Part shown: one piece after another, positions 1,751 through 25,035 of the stretch
Numbering within the stretch: the stretch's first letter is position 1
How the letters are laid out: every line of letters starts with the position of its first letter
Source: Candidatus Latescibacterota bacterium
GTDB lineage: Bacteria > Latescibacterota > UBA2968 > UBA8231
NCBI GenBank assembly: GCA_965215195.1
Contig: CBDCDC010000002.1
Span: 384,001 to 448,000 of the forward strand
Length of the DNA stretch: 64,000 bases
Direction of reading: 5' to 3'
Translations under genes and position numbers: made by a program
The notes under the pieces: model-generated
Databases searched by the model: none
What the model was told of the DNA's origin: nothing
Seen by the model: only the letters and a program-made list of their open reading frames with translations

Positions 1751-2608
1751 ATGCACCGCTTCGACCAAATTCTCTACTACTTGCGCGAAAGCCCGATGCT
1801 TGCGGCCGGCCTGTGCATGATCCTGTTGGTGGTGCTCTTCGGGGTCTTGGGGCCGCTCTTCGTCGATACCTCGCAGGCCCAGCCGCTGGCCACGCCGCCG
1901 CGGCAAGCGCCCTCGCTGGACCACCCCTTTGGCACTGACGACTCCGGCCGCGACCTCCTCGCGGTGATGGTGGTGGGGGTGCCGCTGACCATGCGGATTG
2001 GCCTGTTGGCCGGCACGGTGGGGTTGGGGCTGGGCATTTTCCTCGGCTTTACGAGCGGCTATATGGGCGGCAAAATAGACGCGGTCATCCGCGGGCTCGT
2101 GGATACGCTGCTGACCGTGCCCGGGCTCGTGGTGCTGGTCTCCATTGCCTCGACGATCCGCGAGGAAATCAGCGTCAACATCATGGCCTTGGTGGTGGCT
2201 TCGCTGGCGTGGATGTGGCCCACGCGCACGATTCGCTCGCAGGTCTTGACCATGCGCGAGCGGGCCTACGTGCAGATGGCCCAGCTCAACGGCATGAGCA
2301 ATGCCGAGATCATCTGGAAGGAACTTTTTCCCAATCTGCTGCCCTATCTCGCGGCCAATTTCACCAATGCTGTCAACTGGGCCATTCTCTCGTCGATCGG
2401 CTTGGAGGCCCTTGGCTTGGGGCCGCAGAACGATCCAACGGTCGGCATGACCATTTACTGGGCCATCACGTTCAGTGCGCTCATTCGCGGCATGTGGTGG
2501 TGGTGGGCCATTCCCATTCTCTTTATCGGCGTGATCTTCGTCGGCTTGTTGATGACGGCGGCCGGCTTAGACGAGCTGGCCAACCCCAAACAGCGCAAGG
2601 CCGTATGA
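1751..2608 (+). CDS. ABC transporter permease (OppC/DppC family)
   Basis: PSLDHPFGTDDSGRDL motif, EAA-like loop YVQMAQLNG; start taken at ATG 1751, just after the upstream stop. Confidence 0.92.
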   Translation: MHRFDQILYYLRESPMLAAGLCMILLVVLFGVLGPLFVDTSQAQPLATPPRQAPSLDHPFGTDDSGRDLLAVMVVGVPLTMRIGLLAGTVGLGLGIFLGFTSGYMGGKIDAVIRGLVDTLLTVPGLVVLVSIASTIREEISVNIMALVVASLAWMWPTRTIRSQVLTMRERAYVQMAQLNGMSNAEIIWKELFPNLLPYLAANFTNAVNWAILSSIGLEALGLGPQNDPTVGMTIYWAITFSALIRGMWWWWAIPILFIGVIFVGLLMTAAGLDELANPKQRKAV

Positions 2609-3612
2609 GCAGGGCCGACAAAGAGGTCCTGCTGGCCATTCGCGGCTTGGAGGTCCACTTCGAGACCCGGCGCGGCATTGCCCGCGCCGTCAACGAGGTT
2701 GATCTGACTCTGTACAAAGGCGAGCGTTTTGGCCTCGTCGGCGAATCCGGCAGCGGCAAGACCACGTTGATTTTGGCGCTGTTGCGGATGATCAAGACGC
2801 CGGGCCTCATCGCCGCTGGCAGCGCGACCTTAGACGACGGCACCGACTTGATCCAACTCAACCGCGAGCAGGTGCGGCAGGCCCGGCTCAAGCGGGTCGC
2901 GATGGTGCCGCAGGGCGCGATGAACTCGCTCAACCCGGTGATGCGGATCGGGGATCAACTGATGCTGACGATGCGCGAGCACGCAGTTGAGCAAGCCCCG
3001 CCGCCCAAGGCCGCGCAGGTGGAGCGCGCCATTGAGCTGTTGGCCAAGGTCGGGCTAAAGCCGGAAGTGGCCCGTCTCTACCCCCACGAATTGAGCGGCG
3101 GCATGAAGCAGCGGGCCTGCATTGCCCAGGCCATTTCGCTCAACCCGCAGCTTATCTTGGCCGACGAGCCGACCTCTGCCCTCGACGTGGTCGTGCAGCG
3201 GCAAATCATGCAGACCTTGCGCCAGCTACAGCACCAGCTCAATGCCACCGTGCTCTTGGTGGGCCACGACATGGGCCTGATGGCGCAGTTCGCCGAGCGC
3301 GTGGGCATCATGTACGGCGGCAAATTGGTCGAGGTGGGCCGGGTCGAGGAGATTTTTCACAACCCGCAACACCCCTATACCCAGCTCTTGATTGCCAGCA
3401 TTCCCTCGTTTGAGACCAAGGGCGAGTTCAAGGGCATTCCCGGGGTCGCGCTGTCGCTGCTGGACCCGCCATCGGGCTGCCTCTTCCACCCGCGCTGCCC
3501 CCAAGCCATGCCCCAGTGCAGCCAACGCGCACCCGTCCTGCAAACGGTCGCCCCGGACCACTTAGCGTCGTGTTTGTTGCACGAGGAGGACGCCGATGCC
3601 CCCGCTTCTTGA
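2605..3612 (+). CDS. ABC transporter ATP-binding subunit (OppD/DppD family)
   Basis: Walker A GESGSGKT, signature LSGGMKQR, ADEPTSALD, HPYT and GC.FHPRC tail; ATGA overlap at 2605-2608. Confidence 0.95.
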   Translation: MSRADKEVLLAIRGLEVHFETRRGIARAVNEVDLTLYKGERFGLVGESGSGKTTLILALLRMIKTPGLIAAGSATLDDGTDLIQLNREQVRQARLKRVAMVPQGAMNSLNPVMRIGDQLMLTMREHAVEQAPPPKAAQVERAIELLAKVGLKPEVARLYPHELSGGMKQRACIAQAISLNPQLILADEPTSALDVVVQRQIMQTLRQLQHQLNATVLLVGHDMGLMAQFAERVGIMYGGKLVEVGRVEEIFHNPQHPYTQLLIASIPSFETKGEFKGIPGVALSLLDPPSGCLFHPRCPQAMPQCSQRAPVLQTVAPDHLASCLLHEEDADAPAS

Positions 3613-4651
3613 GGCGCGCCATCTGCGCAAGGTTTTCCGCAGCGGCGGCCAGCGCTTCGGCCCCAGTACCGAGACTGTAGCTGTTGACGATTTTTCCCTG
3701 TCGATTGACGCTGACCGGCCCTCCTTTACCACGATTGCCGGCGAGTCCGGCAGCGGCAAGACCACAATCGCCCGCATGTTGCTCGGGGTGCTCGCCCCCA
3801 GCGCCGGCGAGGTGCTCTACCAAGGCCGCGATGTACACCACCTGCAAAAGGAGGAGCGGCGGCAATTTCGCAAGGACGTACAGGCTATTTTTCAAGACCC
3901 CTTTGAGGTGTACAATCCCTTCTACAAGATCGATCACATCCTGACGACGCCGGTGCGGAAGTTCGGGTTGGCCGCGTCCAAGGCCGATGCGTACGACAAG
4001 ATCCGCGAGGCCCTGCGCGCGGTTGGGCTGCGGCCCGAGGAAACGTTGGGTCGCTATCCGCACCAGCTTTCGGGCGGGCAGCGCCAGCGCATCACCATTG
4101 CGCGTGCGCTCTTGCTCAAGCCCAAGTTGATCATCGCCGACGAGCCAGTGTCCATGGTCGATGCCTCGCTACGCGCTACCATTCTCTCCACTCTGCACGC
4201 GCTGTATCGCAACTTTGGCATTTCCTTCATCTACATCACTCACGACCTGACGACCGCGTACCAAGTCAGCGAGAACATCGTCATCCTGTTCCACGGGGCC
4301 GTAGCCGAGGCTGGCCACACCGAGAAGGTGATCAAGGACCCGCAGCATCCCTATACGCGCGAGCTAATTCACTCAATTCCCGTGCCCGAGCCGGGGCGCG
4401 AGTGGATCGACGAAGCGGTGGAAGAAAAGGAAGTAGTTGATATAGAGGATATAGAGGCCGAAGAGATGGCTACTGGCTGCCGCTACGTGCTGCGCTGTCC
4501 TCAAGCCATGGCCCAGTGTGCGGCCGCGCCGCCGTTTTATCGACCAGAAGCCGAGCGGGCAGTGGCTTGTTTTCTGCACGCTGAGTCGCCGGTGTTGGAA
4601 AGCGGCGATCTAAACGAAGTGTTCTCGGCTGCGGCCGACGCGCAGAAATGA
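3596..4651 (+). CDS. ABC transporter ATP-binding subunit (OppF/DppF family)
   Basis: GESGSGKT, IFQDP, LSGGQRQR, ADEPVSMVD, HPYT motifs. Confidence 0.95.
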   Translation: MPPLLEARHLRKVFRSGGQRFGPSTETVAVDDFSLSIDADRPSFTTIAGESGSGKTTIARMLLGVLAPSAGEVLYQGRDVHHLQKEERRQFRKDVQAIFQDPFEVYNPFYKIDHILTTPVRKFGLAASKADAYDKIREALRAVGLRPEETLGRYPHQLSGGQRQRITIARALLLKPKLIIADEPVSMVDASLRATILSTLHALYRNFGISFIYITHDLTTAYQVSENIVILFHGAVAEAGHTEKVIKDPQHPYTRELIHSIPVPEPGREWIDEAVEEKEVVDIEDIEAEEMATGCRYVLRCPQAMAQCAAAPPFYRPEAERAVACFLHAESPVLESGDLNEVFSAAADAQK

Positions 4652-17273: not shown

Positions 17274-19196
17274 TCAATAGTAGTAGAACGCATAGACCAG
17301 CGCGGCCCCGCCCACGCCGACGCAGGTGCCCAAGATCAGACCAATGAAAAAGGGCAGCAGGGCGCGGTAGAGCCGGATGCCGCCGTAGCGCAGGGCTAGG
17401 AGCTTGACCAGCCAGGCCAAGAAAATCCCGAACCAGTCGATGGAGACGGTGTTGGTCAGGGCGATGCCCAGTCCCACCGGGTGCAAGGGCCAGCCGGCGA
17501 AGCGGTACTGGGCCAGCGAGAGCAGCCCGGCGAGGCCCGCGCCAATGGCGAGGAACACGGCCACCAGCGGCTCGGCGGGATTGGGGTTGTTGATCGAATT
17601 GGCGACCCAAGACCAATGGTATTGCGGGGACATGACGAAGTACCAGCGGTAGCCGTGGATCAGTCCGTGGCGATAGCCCAGCCATATATAGCAGACCATG
17701 GTGGTGATGAGGCCGACGAGCATGGCGGCGGACAAAAAGAACACCAGCTTGCGCCCGCTGATGTTGAGCCGGGCCGGCTCGCAGACCTTGAAGGCGTGGG
17801 CGAGAGTGCCCATCAGAAAGAGCTGCAAGTCGGCCGTCCAGACCATGCTCAGCCCCATCGCGCTCAGCCCTTGGGCGCCAAAAGGGGCCGTGCCCACGAG
17901 ATTGGTCAAGATCGGCGGCACCGAGACCGGGCCGCGCAGGCGGCCGATCCCGGTCTGGGCCAACAGGCGGGCAATGCCAAAGAAAATCACCAGCGCGACC
18001 AGCAAAAAGACGATGCTCCAGGCCAAACTCAGGCCGCTGGCCCAGAGGAAGCCGCTCATGTACGTCAGCCCGACGAGCCCGAGCAGGGCGGCGGTGCGCG
18101 GCGCGATCGGGCTGTTGCGGTCTGGACCACCGCTGCTGATCAGCCGCCACTGGCGCCGCAGGAAGTGGCGCGACATCCACAGCGAAATCCCGACGATGCA
18201 CGCCAGCGAGCCGATCTGCTGATGGGCCAGCAGTACGTTGGGTGGTGCGTGGGGCTGGGCCGGCAGCGACAGGGAAATGCCCAGCCAGTTGAGCAGGGCC
18301 CCTTCGGCGGCGATGAGTAGGTGAAAAAACCAGACGCTGAACAGCACGTTGAGGCCCACCAGATAGCTCAAGCCCACGACCAGCAGGTCGGTGTTAAGCC
18401 CGTAACTAAGCCCGAATTGACGGATCTCGATGCGGCCGCCGGGGATGCCAAAACCGTGGATGATCTCGATGTCTAATACTTGGTCGAGCATATTGACGGT
18501 CGGCAGCACCCAAGCGATGAGAAACCCCACCCACAACAGCTTGCTCTTGAGAATGGACGCGGTGGGGTTTTCTAGGCTTTCGAGGAGCATGTTGGGGACG
18601 GCGGCGAGGGGGTACACCAAGCGCTCTTGGCGCGACCACTGGTGGTGGACGAGGCTGATCAGGGCGATGCTGACCAAGAAGAAGGCCAGCATGAAGAGGC
18701 CCCACCACAGCAGCGGCCCAGCCCACAAGGCCCAAGGCACGGGCGCGGCGGCCCCGGCTCCTTCAAAGAGCTGGCGGATCGCTTCGAGGTCGCGGGGGAC
18801 GGCCCAGTGGGGGATGTGCGGCCAGAGCAGGTCGGACCAGTTGTTTTCTGCGGTGGCGTAGTAAAAGACGCCGGCGATTAAAGGGATGAAGTAGCCGCCA
18901 AAGCCCATGGAGGGCAGCACTACGGCCACCATGAGCGCGGCATAGACCAAGGCGAAATTGGCTGGCGAGAGGCGCAAGAGCGGGTGGAGCAGGCGCAGCG
19001 CAAGGGCGACGACCACCAGCCAGAAGATCAGGAAGATGACGCCGACGGTGTTGAAGTGATCGGTCAGCCCGGTGTAGCTGCCATAGAGAACGTAGGTCCG
19101 CACACTGGTAAAGGTCATGCAGACGGTAAAGACTAAGACGAGGCCGAAGGAGAAACAGGTGCCGAGGAAGGAGGTAGTTGTAGGGATGCGGGGCAT
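17274..19196 (-). CDS. Polytopic membrane protein, DUF6785/DUF6784-type; paralog of 9603..11546
   Basis: Same motifs: FYYATAENNW, HHQW..QERL.YPL, WPLHPVG, LRYGG..LYR...PFFIGLILG. Confidence 0.75.
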   Translation of the reverse strand: MPRIPTTTSFLGTCFSFGLVLVFTVCMTFTSVRTYVLYGSYTGLTDHFNTVGVIFLIFWLVVVALALRLLHPLLRLSPANFALVYAALMVAVVLPSMGFGGYFIPLIAGVFYYATAENNWSDLLWPHIPHWAVPRDLEAIRQLFEGAGAAAPVPWALWAGPLLWWGLFMLAFFLVSIALISLVHHQWSRQERLVYPLAAVPNMLLESLENPTASILKSKLLWVGFLIAWVLPTVNMLDQVLDIEIIHGFGIPGGRIEIRQFGLSYGLNTDLLVVGLSYLVGLNVLFSVWFFHLLIAAEGALLNWLGISLSLPAQPHAPPNVLLAHQQIGSLACIVGISLWMSRHFLRRQWRLISSGGPDRNSPIAPRTAALLGLVGLTYMSGFLWASGLSLAWSIVFLLVALVIFFGIARLLAQTGIGRLRGPVSVPPILTNLVGTAPFGAQGLSAMGLSMVWTADLQLFLMGTLAHAFKVCEPARLNISGRKLVFFLSAAMLVGLITTMVCYIWLGYRHGLIHGYRWYFVMSPQYHWSWVANSINNPNPAEPLVAVFLAIGAGLAGLLSLAQYRFAGWPLHPVGLGIALTNTVSIDWFGIFLAWLVKLLALRYGGIRLYRALLPFFIGLILGTCVGVGGAALVYAFYYY

Positions 19197-19441
19197 AGTG
19201 GGAATTGGGAATTGAGGGGTGAAGGGGTGAGTTGGGGGCTTTATAATAGAATAGATGGGGGGAGTGCAGGCAATGATGCGCGGCGGCAGCATCTCGTCTC
19301 ATGCTTGACAAACCCTAACGCGGGAAAAAAACGCTCGGCGCGGCGGAGAATCCTGTATGCAGTGGCAGCGGTAGGGGTTCTGCCGTTTGCGATTCCGGCA
19401 ACGAGAGGTAAAAGCTGTAAAAGGAAAATACTTTGCCAAGT

Positions 19442-20820
19442 ATGTTACCTAGACTAGTCGGGCGGCAACTAGAGGTATTATACCTCCCAGCCAATGGCCA
19501 TACAGTGGTGCTCGGCACCGCTGGGAGCGGCAAGACGACGCTCTCTATTTACCGCGCTCTCTACTTGTCCGAGCCGTCCACCGACCACTGCGGGCGTACG
19601 CTGCTGGTGACGTTCAATCGATGTCTGGTCACCTATATGAAGCATCTAGCTGAAACAATCCAGCAATCTGTGGATATACGAAATTACCATCGCTTCGCAC
19701 GGGATTATCTCGACCACAGAGGCAAGTTACCACCGAAAAGCATCTGTCGCCCCGAAGAACGGTTGCGCTTCATAAGGCTTGCAGTGAGCGAAGCGCGAGC
19801 CGATGGTGTACAGAGCCCGATGCTGCGACGTTCAGAGGAATTCCTCGATGAAGAGTTCCAATGGATTCAGCAGCATGGTATTGCGAGCGAGGAGGATTAT
19901 GTCGCGGCGGAACGCATAGGTCGGACGGCAACCCGAGTTGCAAGGGTTGAGCGTCCTGCACTATTTGATCTTTACAAGCGATACTTGAATCAGCGGCAGC
20001 AAGGCGGCAAGTCGTACGACTGGGATGACCTCGCCAGTGCCGTGCTCCGAGAGCTTCAGTTCGATCAGAGTAAACGCCTCTACCGCCACGTAATTATTGA
20101 CGAAGGCCAAGACTTTTCGCCCGAGATGCTGCGCTCGCTCGCAGCCGCTATCCCAGAAGACGGAAGTCTCACTTTCTTTGGCGATATTGCTCAGCAGATA
20201 TACGGGCACCGGATGTCTTGGAGAAGTGCTGGACTTACCGCGACGAAAATCTGGCCATTTAAGGAGAACTACCGCAACACCAAGCAGATTTCCCAACTCG
20301 CGCTCGCGCTTGCGGCCATGCCCAATTTCCCGGACGACCCAGACTTGATCGAGCCAACGGCCCCGGTTGCCGACGGGCCATCTCCGGCGCTTGTGCGGCT
20401 TGCAAGCGAGTCGGAAGAACGAGAATTTGCCGTTTCGCGGGCGACCTTACTGGCTCAGACGGGAACAGTTGCCATTTTGTTTAGGACGCGCGATCAAGAG
20501 AGAACTTTTCGACAGTATCTCCCAAGCGAGGCGACACGGCTCCATCGCGAACTAAAACAATGGCCAAGCGGGCTAGGGCTTTTCTATGGCACATATCACG
20601 CCGCCAAGGGACTGGAGTTTGATACGGTGTTCCTGCCATTCCTGTCGGATAAATGTTGGCCCCGTCCATCCGACGTTAAACTCTTGGGGAACAAGAAGCG
20701 GCGGTGCGAAACTCGCGCCTTCTTTACGTTGGGATCACGCGAGCCAGATCGACGCTCGTACTGACATACTCGGGGTGCGTGACGTCGCTCTTACCGGAAA
20801 TAGAAGGGCTGTATCAATGA
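19442..20820 (+). CDS. UvrD/Rep-like SF1 DNA helicase with a single frameshift near the 3' end
   Basis: GTAGSGKTT, IIDEGQD, FGDIAQQIY, ENYRNT, TYHAAKGLEFD in frame. Motif VI (RLLYVGITRAR) is in a shifted frame after the G4 run at 20686-20689 and ends at TGA 20818-20820. Confidence 0.85.
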
Positions 20821-21530
20821 TGACTGAGACGATAGCTTCGATACAGGCCAGCGCGATGCGCCGCGGAATCACACGCCTTTGCCATTTCGCGCCCTCTCGC
20901 AATCTGGGGCACATCGCAGAAGATCGCGCAGGGATTCTCGCCTCGAAGTATCTTGAGGAGGACGAGAAAGCTGTCTTCAATCCGACGGATTCAGAGCGCA
21001 TGGATGGTTATCCAAACTATGTGTGCTGCTCGATTCAGTACCCGAACGCTTGGTACTTCAGAAAAGCTCGGGGTCGGGAACCGCTATTTCGAGATTGGGT
21101 CATACTTCTGATCAAGCCTGACTACCTATGGTATGCTGGCGCGAAGTTCTGTCCCCGCAATGCGGCGGCCGAGCACGGGACGCTCGTCGATGAAGGTGCA
21201 GAGGCATTCGAGGCGTTATTTGCCGACACCGTCGAAGGCACTCACACGTACAGGCGTGATCACCGTCATCCTGATTTCCTGCCCACTGACGAACAAGCCG
21301 AGGTGTTGATTCCGGATCACATCCGACGGGGAGATGTGATCGGCATCGCTGTTTACGACGACGAACAGGCCAAACGGGAAGTGGCTCGGCTGAAGCTGCT
21401 TGGCCGGAGTTTCTCGCCGATCGCGATTGTTCCCGAATTTTTCGACCCGAATAAACTCAGTCAATTGCTACGCTCTGGTCGGGTTCCGGTCGAGCGCGAG
21501 CATCAACAAGGAGACCCTCATGCCCGATAA
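20817..21530 (+). CDS. darT: DarT-family DNA ADP-ribosyltransferase (DUF4433), DarT1-like
   Basis: LCHF...NL..I, D.ER.DG, CCSIQYPN, DWVIL.I.P..LW, FCP.NAA, GAEAFEALF and PTDEQAEVL with the putative catalytic Glu; ATGA overlap with the corrected helicase stop. Confidence 0.85.
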   Translation: MMTETIASIQASAMRRGITRLCHFAPSRNLGHIAEDRAGILASKYLEEDEKAVFNPTDSERMDGYPNYVCCSIQYPNAWYFRKARGREPLFRDWVILLIKPDYLWYAGAKFCPRNAAAEHGTLVDEGAEAFEALFADTVEGTHTYRRDHRHPDFLPTDEQAEVLIPDHIRRGDVIGIAVYDDEQAKREVARLKLLGRSFSPIAIVPEFFDPNKLSQLLRSGRVPVEREHQQGDPHAR

Positions 21531-23175
21531 CAGCGAGAGCCAAGCGCACGAACCGATCTTGCCGTTGCAGGCCAAAGCCGAGGGTGCCTTTCTTGCGCTC
21601 GCGGCTGGCGACGCGCTGGGCTGGCCCCAAGAAATAGCTCGAAACGTCCAAGGCAGCCCTGAGAGCAAGGGGGCACATGTGGAGTTCAAGGGGTGGACGC
21701 GGCGCAGTGGTGGACGATTCCAACCCTATGAGGAAAACATCTACGCCGGAGACTATAGCGACGATACGCAACTTACCCTCGCGGTTGCACGGAGCAGAAC
21801 AAATCACGGCTCTAAATGGTGGAAAGCGTTTACGAAGGTGGAACTTCCGCTCTGGACGCTGTACGAACGGGGTGGGGGTGGGGCTACGAAGCGCGCGGCC
21901 AAAGCATGGGTCGAAGGTACACCTCCGTGGAAGTCAGATAAGAAAGATGGCGTTCGCCGATACTTTGAGGCTGGCGGCAACGGGGTCGCCATGCGCGTCC
22001 TACCCCATGCCTTGTTTCTCGCTGGGCAGGAAGATCCCGCCGACCTTATGTACGATGTCATTCTCGATGGATCGGCTACCCATGGCCATCCGCGCGCATT
22101 CGTCGGGGCGACGGTGTACGCCTATGCCGCGTGGATGCTGGCGCGTAGAAGTGACACGCTCCGGTTTGGTGAATTGCTGGACGTATTGATCGATGAATCG
22201 CCCAAATGGAGCAAGTTTCCCGAGTCGAATCGAAATGACCGAACGTGGTTCTCATTCGCTAAAGGCGCGATAGGCGGATACGAGTTGAAATGGGATCAAA
22301 CGATTAAGGAAATGCGAGAGCTACTCGCGAACGCGCGAAAAGGGGTCCAAGCTGGTGCGCTCGCGGACGACCATGTGGTCTTGAAAGAGCTTGGATGTCT
22401 CGGTCATGCCAAGGGAGCGGGAACCGTTAGTGCGGCTGCCGCCGCGTACCTTGTCGCACGTCATGCAGCACAGCCGGTGCAAGGGATACTCAGAGCCGCC
22501 TTTGAGCAGGGCGCGGACACGGACACCCTCGCGGCCATGACCGGAGGGCTGATGGGATGCTTGGCGGGTGTCGAATGGCTACCGGCATCGTGGCTAGAAG
22601 TCCAAGATGCCGAATACCTCCGAAACATCGCCAGCCAAATTGCCTTGGGGCCGGACCGTGCGTCCCAGAATCCTGTAGAACCTCCTGCGAACCCTCAAGC
22701 CATCTTCTCTGATCTTGCTTGGAACGGAGACCGCGAAGTGGTCTTTGGCGGCTTAAAACGAGTTCGGGCAACGCCTCTGCCGGTTCCTAAGCCAATTGCC
22801 CGATCAATCGCGGTCCAAGCGTGGAAGCTCAAAACTTCCGAGGGCCAGACCATGTATGTCACCAAGGTGAACCATTTGCGGGACAGCAAGGCGAGCCATA
22901 CACCGGAGCCGACCAAGCCAGCCGGCGCGAACGAGGCGGTGGAATCCGCTCGGGTCTCGAAGGGGGTGCTCTACGCTGAGTTTTGCCGACAATTGCAAGG
23001 TCATCTAGAATCTGGGGCCATGAAACGCAAAGAAATAGAGAGTGCTTTGGACCTCGTTCCGGGCCAAGTCAAAAAATGGCTAAGCCAAGCCGAACAGGAT
23101 GGGTGGATTCGGCGGATATCCATCAAGCCCGCAAAATTCGCGTTGTGCGGCCAGAAGTCCCTACGTAAAGAGTAA
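21520..23175 (+). CDS. ADP-ribosylglycohydrolase (DraG/ARH family) with C-terminal extension ending in a winged-helix-like domain
   Basis: A.GDALGWP.E, YSDDTQLT, GNGVAMR, THGHP, GADTDTLAAMTG; AAGGAG RBS; overlaps the darT stop. Confidence 0.88.
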   Translation: MPDNSESQAHEPILPLQAKAEGAFLALAAGDALGWPQEIARNVQGSPESKGAHVEFKGWTRRSGGRFQPYEENIYAGDYSDDTQLTLAVARSRTNHGSKWWKAFTKVELPLWTLYERGGGGATKRAAKAWVEGTPPWKSDKKDGVRRYFEAGGNGVAMRVLPHALFLAGQEDPADLMYDVILDGSATHGHPRAFVGATVYAYAAWMLARRSDTLRFGELLDVLIDESPKWSKFPESNRNDRTWFSFAKGAIGGYELKWDQTIKEMRELLANARKGVQAGALADDHVVLKELGCLGHAKGAGTVSAAAAAYLVARHAAQPVQGILRAAFEQGADTDTLAAMTGGLMGCLAGVEWLPASWLEVQDAEYLRNIASQIALGPDRASQNPVEPPANPQAIFSDLAWNGDREVVFGGLKRVRATPLPVPKPIARSIAVQAWKLKTSEGQTMYVTKVNHLRDSKASHTPEPTKPAGANEAVESARVSKGVLYAEFCRQLQGHLESGAMKRKEIESALDLVPGQVKKWLSQAEQDGWIRRISIKPAKFALCGQKSLRKE

Positions 23176-23220
23176 AGATGCCCTTCCGAGTAGTAGCCAA
23201 CCGTCGGTTGGGGCAGTAAT

Positions 23221-25035
23221 ATGCCCCTCCGAGTAGCTAACCTTCACACTCCATACATCGGCTGGCTCGTCTTCGCCCTCGCCCTCGCGCTGCGGGTCGC
23301 CTACATCTTCGAGCTGGATGCGAGTCCGCTCTTTGCACATCCAGCGGTCGATGCCAAGACGTACACCCATCACGCCCAGCGCTTGGCCGCGGGCAACTGG
23401 TTGGGCGTTGGCGAGGGGCCGTTTTGGCAGCCGCCGCTCTACCCGTACTTCCTCGGGGCGGTGAAGCTCCTTTTTTCGGAGTCATTTTTTTACGCTGTGC
23501 GCTTTGTGCAGGCCCTGCTGGGGGCGCTGGTCTGCGCGATGAGCTGGTGGATTGGGCGCACTTTGTTCAATCCGGCGGTGGGGTTGCTGGCCGGGGTTGG
23601 CGCAGCAGTGTGCGGGCCGCTGATCTTTTTTGACGGCGAGCTGTTGCCGGCCTCGCTAGCCGCCTTTGTCGATCTGCTGGCCTTGGTGGTGCTTTTGCGC
23701 GTCTGGCGTCGCCCGAGCCGTTGGGGCTTTTTGGGTGCCGGCGCGGGCTTTGGCGTTGGTGGGTTGGCCGTGCCGACGGTGCTGACCTTTGCGGTCGCCG
23801 TGCCCATCGTCCTCTTGTGGCGCACTCCCCGTCGGCAGGGCTTGAGTTGGGCCGGTGCGTTCTCGCTGGGGGTGCTCTTGGCCATCGCGCCAGTGGCTTG
23901 GCGCAACTGGGCCATTGGCGGCGACGGGGTGGGGATTTCCTACAACGCGGGGATCAACCTGTACATTGGCAACAATCCCGACTATGCACAGACTACGGCC
24001 ATCCGCCCGGGGTGGGAATGGGACGAGTTGGTCACCCAACCGGCGCGGGCGGGGATTGCGCGGCCCTCGGCTAAGTCGGCGTACTTTGCCGAGCGAGCTT
24101 GGGACTACATCGCAGGCGATCCGACCGCGTGGCTGGGGTTGATGGGGCGCAAGCTAGGGGCGTTTTGGCACGGCGACGAGCAGGGGCGCAACCAGCCGAT
24201 CTACTTCTGGCGCACCTATTCAAAGGTGCTGTCGGCGACCCTGTGGAAAGCGGGCATTGCCTTCCCCTTTGGCCTAGTGGCCCCCTTGGCGCTGTGGGGG
24301 ATGCTCTTGAGTCTGCGGCGGATCGGCCCGACGTGGTCGCTGCTGTACGCGCTGAGCTATTGCTTGGGGGTGGTCGCATTTTTTGTGGCGGCGCGCTACC
24401 GGGTGCCGGTGCTGCCAGTGCTCGTAGTCTTTGCCGCCTACGGGCTGTGGGCGCTGTGGGAGTGGGGACGGGCGGGCCGTTGGCGCAGCTTGGGGCTGGG
24501 GTTGGCCGTCTGCTCGGCCTTTGCGTTGGCGGCCAACAGCCGTATAGCGCCCATGGACATGGAGGGGGATGCGGCCATCCACTACAATCTGGGCAATGCG
24601 TATGCCGAGGCCGGCGACCAAGAGCGGGCACTGGCGGCGTTTGAGCGGGCAGTGGCTGAGGATCCGCACTACTGGCAGGCGTGGTTAAATCTGGGTGGGG
24701 TCAAGGGGGCGCGGGGGGATTTGCAGGGCGCGGGGGAAATTTTCGCACGTCTGACCCGCGAGATCCCCGGGCAAGTCGAGCCGTGGCTCAACCTAGCCCA
24801 CGTGCGGATCGTGCAGCGCGACCTAGAGGGGGCCTTTAGCTGCTACGAGTCCGCGCTCGCGGCTAATCCCAAATTCCTACCAGCCTACGTGGAAATGATC
24901 CACCTCTACGGGCAGATGGGCGATCTGGCCCGGGCGGCGCACGTCCTCCAACGAGCGGTCGATCATTTGCCCGCCCAGCGCGAGCGGTTGGATCGGCTGT
25001 ACGGTCGGCTGCTCAACGCGGCTGCACGGCCCTGA
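23221..25035 (+). CDS. GT-C (family 39/ArnT-PMT-like) membrane glycosyltransferase with C-terminal TPRs
   Basis: DA..Y...AQ, PFWQPPLYPYFL, GINLYIGNNP, ARYRVP; TPR repeats (HYNLGNAY, AWLNLG). Confidence 0.8.
   Translation: MPLRVANLHTPYIGWLVFALALALRVAYIFELDASPLFAHPAVDAKTYTHHAQRLAAGNWLGVGEGPFWQPPLYPYFLGAVKLLFSESFFYAVRFVQALLGALVCAMSWWIGRTLFNPAVGLLAGVGAAVCGPLIFFDGELLPASLAAFVDLLALVVLLRVWRRPSRWGFLGAGAGFGVGGLAVPTVLTFAVAVPIVLLWRTPRRQGLSWAGAFSLGVLLAIAPVAWRNWAIGGDGVGISYNAGINLYIGNNPDYAQTTAIRPGWEWDELVTQPARAGIARPSAKSAYFAERAWDYIAGDPTAWLGLMGRKLGAFWHGDEQGRNQPIYFWRTYSKVLSATLWKAGIAFPFGLVAPLALWGMLLSLRRIGPTWSLLYALSYCLGVVAFFVAARYRVPVLPVLVVFAAYGLWALWEWGRAGRWRSLGLGLAVCSAFALAANSRIAPMDMEGDAAIHYNLGNAYAEAGDQERALAAFERAVAEDPHYWQAWLNLGGVKGARGDLQGAGEIFARLTREIPGQVEPWLNLAHVRIVQRDLEGAFSCYESALAANPKFLPAYVEMIHLYGQMGDLARAAHVLQRAVDHLPAQRERLDRLYGRLLNAAARP

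Follow-up and report, generated by a model that had tools for sequence, protein, structure and literature searches.

This analysis concerns a cassette of three genes in the genome of Candidatus Latescibacterota bacterium (assembly GCA_965215195.1), which comprises 6.13 Mb in two contigs and is 95.2% complete. The window referred to throughout is a 64,000-nucleotide stretch of contig CBDCDC010000002.1, from position 384,001 to position 448,000 (G000:C2:384001-448000), and coordinates are those of this window unless stated otherwise. Positions 19442-23175 carry, in this order on the + strand, a UvrD-like superfamily 1 (SF1) helicase gene lacking the 2B domain (darH, 19442-20820), a gene for an apparently intact DarT1-like ADP-ribosyltransferase toxin of 237 amino acids (aa) (darT, 20817-21530) and a gene for a 551-aa hydrolase of the ADP-ribosylglycohydrolase (ARH) fold with two extra C-terminal domains, the presumed antitoxin (darG3, 21520-23175). 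We are largely confident that these genes form an anti-phage toxin-antitoxin cassette of the DarHTG type, that they lie within a 4.1-kb unit spanning 19173-23259, and that the helicase of this copy is broken.

Three-frame translation identifies darH as a frameshifted pseudogene. It starts with an ATG at 19442, and its frame 0 ends at a stop codon at 20762-20764; motif VI (LLYVGITRAR) lies in another frame, which runs on to a TGA at 20818-20820. The ATG of darT overlaps this shifted-frame stop (ATGA), and the DarT and ARH genes overlap by 11 nucleotides (nt). Pfam assigns UvrD-helicase (7.9e-17), UvrD_C (1.3e-10) and AAA_19 to the helicase, DarT (PF14487, 2.5e-18) to the toxin and ADP_ribosyl_GH (PF03747, 1.8e-40) to the hydrolase, which is the sole PF03747 match in the genome. 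PADLOC returned matches at the level of components only, namely NERD+UvrD and GajB for the helicase and DarT (1.9e-5) for the toxin, together with a weak match to PsyrA (4.6e-5) at the C-terminus of the ARH protein. The GC content of the trio is 0.54-0.585, compared with 0.61-0.665 in the flanks. The first-pass annotation, made from the sequence without database searches, had described three overlapping, co-oriented genes of lower GC content, a description confirmed by the open reading frames (ORFs), their overlaps, their base composition and Pfam. The UvrD, DarT and ARH motifs that it listed are all present in the translations, with TDEQAEVL at residues 157-164 of DarT and GDALG, SDDT and DTDT at residues 30-34, 80-83 and 333-336 of the ARH protein, respectively.

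This arrangement recurs in many other genomes. Scanning one genome per species with a profile built from 23 DarT sequences identified 69 loci, the counts from which apply to the clade of the window toxin. The catalytic part of the ARH protein was found by tblastn directly downstream of DarT in all 69, the N-terminal part of the helicase upstream of DarT in 68 and its C-terminal part in 66, while the window type of ARH C-terminus was present in 35 of the 69. In the related loci the helicase, toxin and hydrolase typically measure 454-477, 228-246 and 551-621 aa, and the genes are joined by 4-nt stop/start overlaps. A crude table passes 48 of the 69 loci for all three genes, most of the toxin 'stops' that it records near residue 230 being natural gene ends that tblastn has read through. 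Intact trios are found in Latescibacterota, Acidobacteriota, Cyanobacteriota, Proteobacteria, Actinomycetota, Planctomycetota and other phyla. The survey of UvrD-DarT-ARH synteny that the first-pass annotation had suggested thus finds the order conserved in 69 loci of many phyla, and the arrangement is not due to chance.

The same layout belongs to a system that already has a name. The text available of Liu et al. (Nucleic Acids Res, 2026; PMC13069673) describes the E. coli system Liu-DS3, named DarHTG for its components DarH, DarT and DarG3. DarH is presented there as a UvrD-like helicase without the 2B domain, the toxin is related to known DarTs, with the system as a whole annotated and discussed as DarTG-like, and the DarG3 antitoxin resembles ADP-ribosylglycohydrolases and is unlike both known types of DarG. 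According to the same text, the E. coli system protects against T4, T5, T7 and SSL_2009a, this protection is lost with mutants in the active site of DarT or in ATP binding by the helicase, and DarG3 mutant constructs were unobtainable; DarHTG is given as present in fewer than 0.5% of E. coli genomes and as commonest in Thermodesulfobacteriota and Bacteroidota. A full-text literature search for DarHTG and DarG3 returned no relevant paper besides this one, the other matches to 'DarG3' being superscript artefacts or unrelated.

A blastn search of E. coli genomes with the window trio gave no match. When plasmids were searched with the window DarT by tblastn, a match was found on a Salmonella plasmid, where the toxin, a DUF4433 protein of 221 aa, lies between a helicase of 465 aa and an ADP-ribosylglycohydrolase of 561 aa. 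Of 5426 complete E. coli genomes, 21 (0.39%) contain the DNA of this 3.76-kb trio at 99% identity or higher, in every case on the chromosome, and the identity is 99.9-100% in the 15 genomes listed of these 21; the annotations of the E. coli genes read 3'-5' exonuclease, DarT and ADP-ribosylglycohydrolase. In BLASTP comparisons with the E. coli/Salmonella proteins the window DarT is 28% identical (E 3e-15), the helicase 24% over 421 columns (E 8e-25) and the ARH protein 29% over 486 columns (E 3e-34), the last alignment running past the catalytic domain to window residue 481. The frequency of 21 in 5426 agrees with the figure of less than 0.5% stated in the accessible text of Liu et al. (PMC13069673), and by its matching composition, order, host and prevalence the E. 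coli/Salmonella trio is very likely the Liu-DS3 system that was tested there.

The window trio shares with DarHTG of E. coli the helicase-DarT-ARH order, here in three overlapping co-oriented ORFs, a UvrD-like helicase family that lacks 2B, an antitoxin of the ARH fold that is neither a macrodomain nor a NADAR protein, and protein sizes of about 459, 237 and 551 aa as against 465, 221 and 561 aa; all three proteins are homologous. The two differ in phylum, the closest relatives of the window trio being from metagenome-assembled genomes (MAGs) of Latescibacterota, in the predicted winged helix in which the window antitoxin ends, and in the frameshift that puts motif VI of the window helicase out of frame, a feature of this copy and not of its clade. 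Defence has been shown by experiment for the E. coli system, whereas the window clade is known from sequence alone. The trio is accordingly a distant and partly decayed member of an already named system. The first-pass annotation had offered it as a candidate new defence system unless its layout matched one already named; the layout is that of DarHTG with DarG3, so the claim to novelty falls.

Schuller et al. (PMC11543638; Mol Cell, 2023), in the text available, give macrodomain and NADAR proteins as the only known partners. NADAR (PF08719) has no match anywhere in the 6.13-Mb assembly, and neither has the DarT1-associated NADAR family PF22397, for which the control genomes gave none either; Macro has two matches, each separated from the trio by over 980 kb. 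The statement of the first-pass annotation that neither type lies nearby therefore holds, for NADAR across the whole genome. A distant NADAR gene as the real antitoxin, a possibility it had left standing, finds no candidate in this 95.2%-complete genome. Its view of the ARH protein as the cognate antitoxin, with the helicase as a third component, gains from the linkage in 69 of 69 and 68 of 69 loci, from the missing NADAR and from the behaviour of the E. coli mutants (PMC13069673, text available).

When the profile of the helicase family was compared with the PDB, its positions 6-365 matched residues 10-371 of UvrD and its positions 373-449 matched residues 562-630. UvrD residues 372-561 thus have no counterpart and the 2B domain is absent, as described for DarH. 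In the related loci the helicase is a single frame of 454-477 aa. The frameshift in the window lies at 20686-20689 (+ strand), a run of four G (G4) that DNA alignment shows to be a run of five (G5) in all five closest relatives (L006-L010). The frame-0 product of the window keeps Walker A and motif II and has lost motif VI; the loss of one G from the G5 run therefore leaves a helicase without motif VI and also removes the ATGA stop/start coupling to darT. The helicase has been broken by a one-base deletion in this bacterium.

Support for the deletion comes from contigs of four public sequencing runs (X19-X22), assembled separately, which belong to one study and are possibly the source of the window assembly. 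Contigs of X19 and X20, at word depths of 353 and 203, are identical to the window over 20160-20736 and carry G4, with no G5 contig listed. Runs X21 and X22 contain the G4 form plus a minor contig with one extra G (9.3 of 30.8 and 10.1 of 24.5, respectively), and this contig has five linked substitutions within about 70 bp, which mark it as another lineage rather than the same strain read correctly; it represents a co-occurring related lineage in which the helicase gene is intact. One could suppose instead that the cassette is fully functional and that the frameshift arose in assembly or base calling, as an error in a homopolymer, given that the difference amounts to a single G in a run that is G5 in all five closest relatives, that a G5 contig appears in two of the runs, and that the four runs may themselves have supplied the assembly. 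We regard such an error as unlikely, since the independent X19 and X20 contigs agree on G4 at high depth, the G5 contig of X21 and X22 belongs to the other lineage, and broken helicases are found elsewhere in the family. Indeed, the gene is interrupted, truncated or missing in 9 of 68 judgeable related loci (L021, L029, L030, L036, L041, L042, L046, L065 and L066; L049, where it is cut by a contig end, is not among the 68), although many of these loci are in MAGs, so that some of these breaks may be errors. In this strain the defence arm is probably dead, while toxin and antitoxin still look intact.

At E<=1e-3 the toxin has 997 homologues, of which the 120 best all show 62% identity or more. 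Searched against the PDB, the profile of its clade has a single match at E<=1, DarT1 of E. coli C7 (8BAQ, 6.9e-30), which upholds the likeness to DarT1 that the first-pass annotation had pointed out. Four plasmid matches that were inspected are each followed by a PF22397 NADAR gene, and these four toxins are therefore DarT1s; the clade profile matches such NADAR-linked DarT1s at 1e-20 to 1e-27 (n=4) and, at 5e-18, the toxin of the E. coli/Salmonella DarHTG; four DarT2s linked to a macrodomain all go unmatched at E<=10. A tree was built of 72 rows, from which 8 of the 69 loci were excluded because crude gene calls had given toxin lengths outside 225-250 aa. In this tree a branch supported at 98/97 has all 64 helicase/ARH-linked toxins on one side, apart from DarT1 and DarT2; the E. 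coli/Salmonella type is among them, on a very long branch that leaves its exact place unsure. The window toxin is thus DarT1-like, yet falls in a clade of its own.

The available text of Schuller et al. (PMC11543638) reports R52, M71, N104 and E152 of DarT1 as essential, with N104 coordinating the base, a guanine, whereas the thymine-specific DarT2 has H119 instead. Residues were mapped through the 8BAQ alignment, in which the chain index equals the residue number plus one, and their roles were taken from the same text. H17 and F18 correspond to H23 and F24 of the window toxin, R52 to R61, D54 to D63, F72 to F81, N104 to N115 and E152 to E162, and all seven window residues are invariant in alignment A1. 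Conservation of N115, the counterpart of N104, makes guanine specificity a reasonable inference, and from these residues the target is probably guanine of single-stranded DNA (ssDNA), at the N2 position as in DarT1.

The cassette can be set beside the two established types on this basis. With DarTG1 of E. coli C7, in which DarT1 is paired with NADAR (PMC11543638, text available), it shares a toxin whose nearest structural relative is DarT1 and which keeps the mapped residues; it differs in having an antitoxin of the ARH fold with no NADAR gene adjoining, a helicase as an obligatory third gene, toxins that form a separate clade, and a tyrosine in place of M71. With DarTG2, the pairing of DarT2 and a macrodomain DarG known from Thermus, Mycobacterium and E. 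coli, it has in common the Pfam DarT superfamily and, as far as its sequence suggests, a logic of reversible DNA ADP-ribosylation. It differs from DarTG2 in that the cassette is without a macrodomain, the nearest being those more than 980 kb away, and in the failure of the clade profile to match DarT2s.

DarG3 was modelled with AlphaFold from a 62-sequence alignment (predicted local distance difference test score, pLDDT, 88.5; predicted template modelling score, pTM, 0.80). Its catalytic domain, residues 16-375 (21565-22644, + strand; Pfam residues 22-356), forms a mostly helical core in the model, for which Foldseek returned MJ1187 (7e-9, TMt 0.75), many ARH3 entries, DraG and Tri1. The nearest characterised relative by sequence is DraG (5.6e-13), with ARH1 and Tri1 also matched; the scores against NCBIfam are 63.9 bits for dinitro_DRAG, with a cut-off of 337, and 23 bits for Tri1, with a cut-off of 490. 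Residues D31, D81, D82, T83, D333, T334, D335 and T336 are invariant in the 62 sequences, and these we take to be the counterparts of the metal ligands of ARH3 and DraG.

Behind the catalytic domain lies a small alpha/beta domain specific to this antitoxin family (residues 392-457; 22693-22890, + strand), recognised from alignment A3, the model and a profile search. It is modelled at a pLDDT of 84-94, and W435, G442 and Q443 are nearly invariant in the alignment. A search of 1.84 billion representatives with its profile yielded 178 proteins at E<=1e-3; in the long ones the domain is placed at about residues 385-470. Nineteen of these, chosen for odd lengths, were scanned for families: 15 have ARH or its tail, 12 a Glyoxalase/VOC C-terminus and three, of 889-914 aa, a DprA/SLOG-like C-terminus; two match no family, and neither Macro nor NADAR was found in any of the 19. 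In the model the small domain is followed by a disordered linker (residues 459-480) and then by a predicted winged-helix-like module with the element order H-H-H-E-E (residues 481-545; 22960-23154, + strand; pLDDT 86-96), to which Pfam gives sub-threshold matches only (MarR 0.015, TrmB 0.065).

This last module varies across the family. Among eight other members scanned it is VOC in five, with E values from 1e-8 to 2e-4, and the Streptomyces member has a sub-threshold VOC match, while the E. coli type and locus L012 gave no C-terminal Pfam match. Variety of C-termini in proteins of the DarG3 type was seen in loci L028, L052, L061, L070 and L072 and in proteins P0188, P0194 and P0206. The C-terminal module is thus exchangeable between clades, being a predicted winged helix in that of the window and VOC or DprA/SLOG-like elsewhere. 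Comparison by hhalign of the C-terminal part of the antitoxin with three macrodomain DarG2 proteins revealed no resemblance, at a probability of 0.2% from a thin profile of three sequences. Neither the small domain nor the C-terminal module is discussed in the accessible text of Liu et al. (PMC13069673), whose supplementary figures possibly show them.

Taken together with the published work, these features suggest how such a cassette might operate. DarT would use NAD+ to attach ADP-ribose to bases of ssDNA, probably at N2 of guanine, and DarG3 would strip this mark in uninfected cells, keeping the toxin harmless; such a role for DarG3 is suggested by its strict linkage to the toxin, its intact metal-binding motifs and the reported failure to mutate it (PMC13069673, text available). 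Upon infection the ATP-driven helicase would be needed for defence, as was shown for the E. coli system in the same text, and the candidate roles for it are sensing phage DNA or exposing ssDNA for DarT. The strain studied here would have retained the toxin-antitoxin pair and lost defence together with the helicase. In such a guanine adduct the N-glycosidic bond would involve a guanidine-like group and so be akin to the ADP-ribosyl-arginine bond that DraG and ARH1 cut. We propose tentatively, at slightly less than even confidence, that DarG3 is the first ARH-fold enzyme to remove ADP-ribose from a DNA base, at guanine N2, and that the C-terminal module and the small domain hold the toxin or sense infection. 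If this were true, the type of module would set the trigger for the release of DarT.

In DraT-DraG and Tre1-Tri1, too, an ADP-ribosyltransferase is paired with a hydrolase of the ARH fold that acts as its cognate eraser or immunity partner, and both DraG and Tri1 match the window ARH. The window pair might be imagined to act on protein or RNA, with the ARH protein reversing a DarT-like modification as in those systems, and it can be said for this that the nearest characterised relatives of the hydrolase by sequence act on protein arginine and that the available texts of PMC13069673 and PMC11543638 describe no ARH-family enzyme as a DNA-base hydrolase. We nevertheless find it quite improbable. 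The toxin belongs to the DarT family and keeps the residues of DarT1 that contact NAD+ and the base, the guanine-coordinating asparagine among them, a DNA helicase accompanies it as a fixed partner, and the published E. coli system is treated, in annotation and discussion, as DarTG-like (PMC13069673, text available). The transferases of DraT-DraG and Tre1-Tri1, in contrast, modify protein arginine, are not of the DarT family and have no helicase partner, and the window ARH scores far below the NCBIfam cut-offs for DraG and Tri1.

Several points weigh against a DarHTG-type cassette with DNA as its substrate. The E. coli trio has been equated with Liu-DS3 without an accession match, the identity to that trio is only 24-29%, and the placement of the E. 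coli DarT on its very long branch was flagged as unsure by the tree tool. DarT1 M71 is replaced by an invariant tyrosine (Y80) in the window clade, whose base specificity is read from sequence only, and the activity of DarG3 on a DNA adduct is a prediction for any DarG3. No other defence genes were found nearby by PADLOC among 22 long ORFs (1136-44914), which gave generic ATPase matches only. Lastly, the four runs with G4 all come from one study, with the type of library unrecorded, and a systematic homopolymer error is conceivable. Convergent assembly of three domain types outside the published DarHTG lineage, which the low identity, the long branch of the E. coli DarT and the lack of a Pfam-detectable C-terminal module in the E. 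coli ARH might suggest, is scarcely credible in view of the nearly full-length alignment of all three proteins, which includes the small domain and reaches window residue 481, of the same gene order and sizes, and of the clustering of helicase/ARH-linked DarTs.

The DarHTG-type cassette is a conserved unit that moves horizontally. Its five closest loci are in Latescibacterota MAGs, with toxin identities of 82-92%, and have the flanking genes of the window in common; in loci of other phyla the alignment is confined to about 19445-23151, at 70-74% DNA identity. Of 168 genomes of the phylum, 6 have the toxin, that of the window included, and all six are in one genus; this corresponds to 5 of the 30 other species of the genus and to none of the 137 genomes elsewhere in the phylum. 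Five complete genomes of the same genus are without the toxin, and in four of them (G131, G135, G137 and G140) the flanks lie about 93 bp apart. Similarity of these empty sites to the window ends at 19172 and restarts at 23260, so the unit of gain and loss is 19173-23259 (no strand assigned), comprising a leader, the three genes and a short tail.

The non-coding leader (19173-19441, + strand) lies inside the insert. A promoter and terminator scan of 19100-23400 found nothing above shuffled expectation, and the leader has no consensus promoter match. In the fifth toxin-less genome (G129; L084 4260-5060) similarity to the window extends some 100 bp beyond that, as far as 19276 in the leader, and a different insert of 740 bp holds a 93-aa ORF and a retropepsin-like ORF with a DTGS motif. 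The intergenic site looks like a hotspot for the exchange of small cassettes. An imperfect direct repeat was noticed by eye at 23178-23202 and 23221-23242: the downstream gene, which encodes a glycosyltransferase (PMT_2 + TPR, 23221-25035), opens with roughly 22 bases that are seen again immediately behind the stop codon of the ARH gene, and in the empty-site genomes this downstream gene starts with different codons. The repeat may be a scar of insertion.

Two of the related loci have unusual settings. On a contig labelled as a Nitrosopumilaceae archaeon (L040) there is a trio with proteins 72-74% identical to those of the window and a truncated DarT, which could mean that the trio moved into an archaeon or that the contig was misbinned. 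On the linear plasmid NZ_CP108532.1 of a Streptomyces sp. (L076, 2661-6471) the trio adjoins an integrase and a Ku/PHP pair, and its helicase bears the NCBI label '3'-5' exonuclease', as in E. coli. Elsewhere in the Latescibacterota genome a second, canonical DarT is encoded at C2:1387348-1387974 (220 aa, Pfam E 3.5e-60, KQAEFLV motif) and is directly followed by a stand-alone macrodomain protein of 177 aa (G000:C2:1387348-1388390; L004 770-1953); the genome thus carries a DarTG2-like pair besides the DarHTG cassette. Within the window, two adjacent ATPase ORFs at 2209-4648 match PADLOC mad3 and mad8 (mad3 at 1e-26 to 1e-28), and look like generic ABC-type ATPases rather than a defence system.

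For the window taken by itself, an exciting-looking candidate is already explained by DarHTG. What the comparison adds concerns the family: the modularity of the antitoxin, the likeness of the toxin to DarT1 and the frameshift are points absent from the accessible text of Liu et al. (PMC13069673). The prediction of base specificity, guanine through the conserved asparagine, is testable, and the natural helicase-null alleles that occur beside intact ones could be used to separate toxin-antitoxin function from defence. DarHTG of E. coli is one tip of a large and well-conserved family, to judge from the 997 homologues of the toxin.

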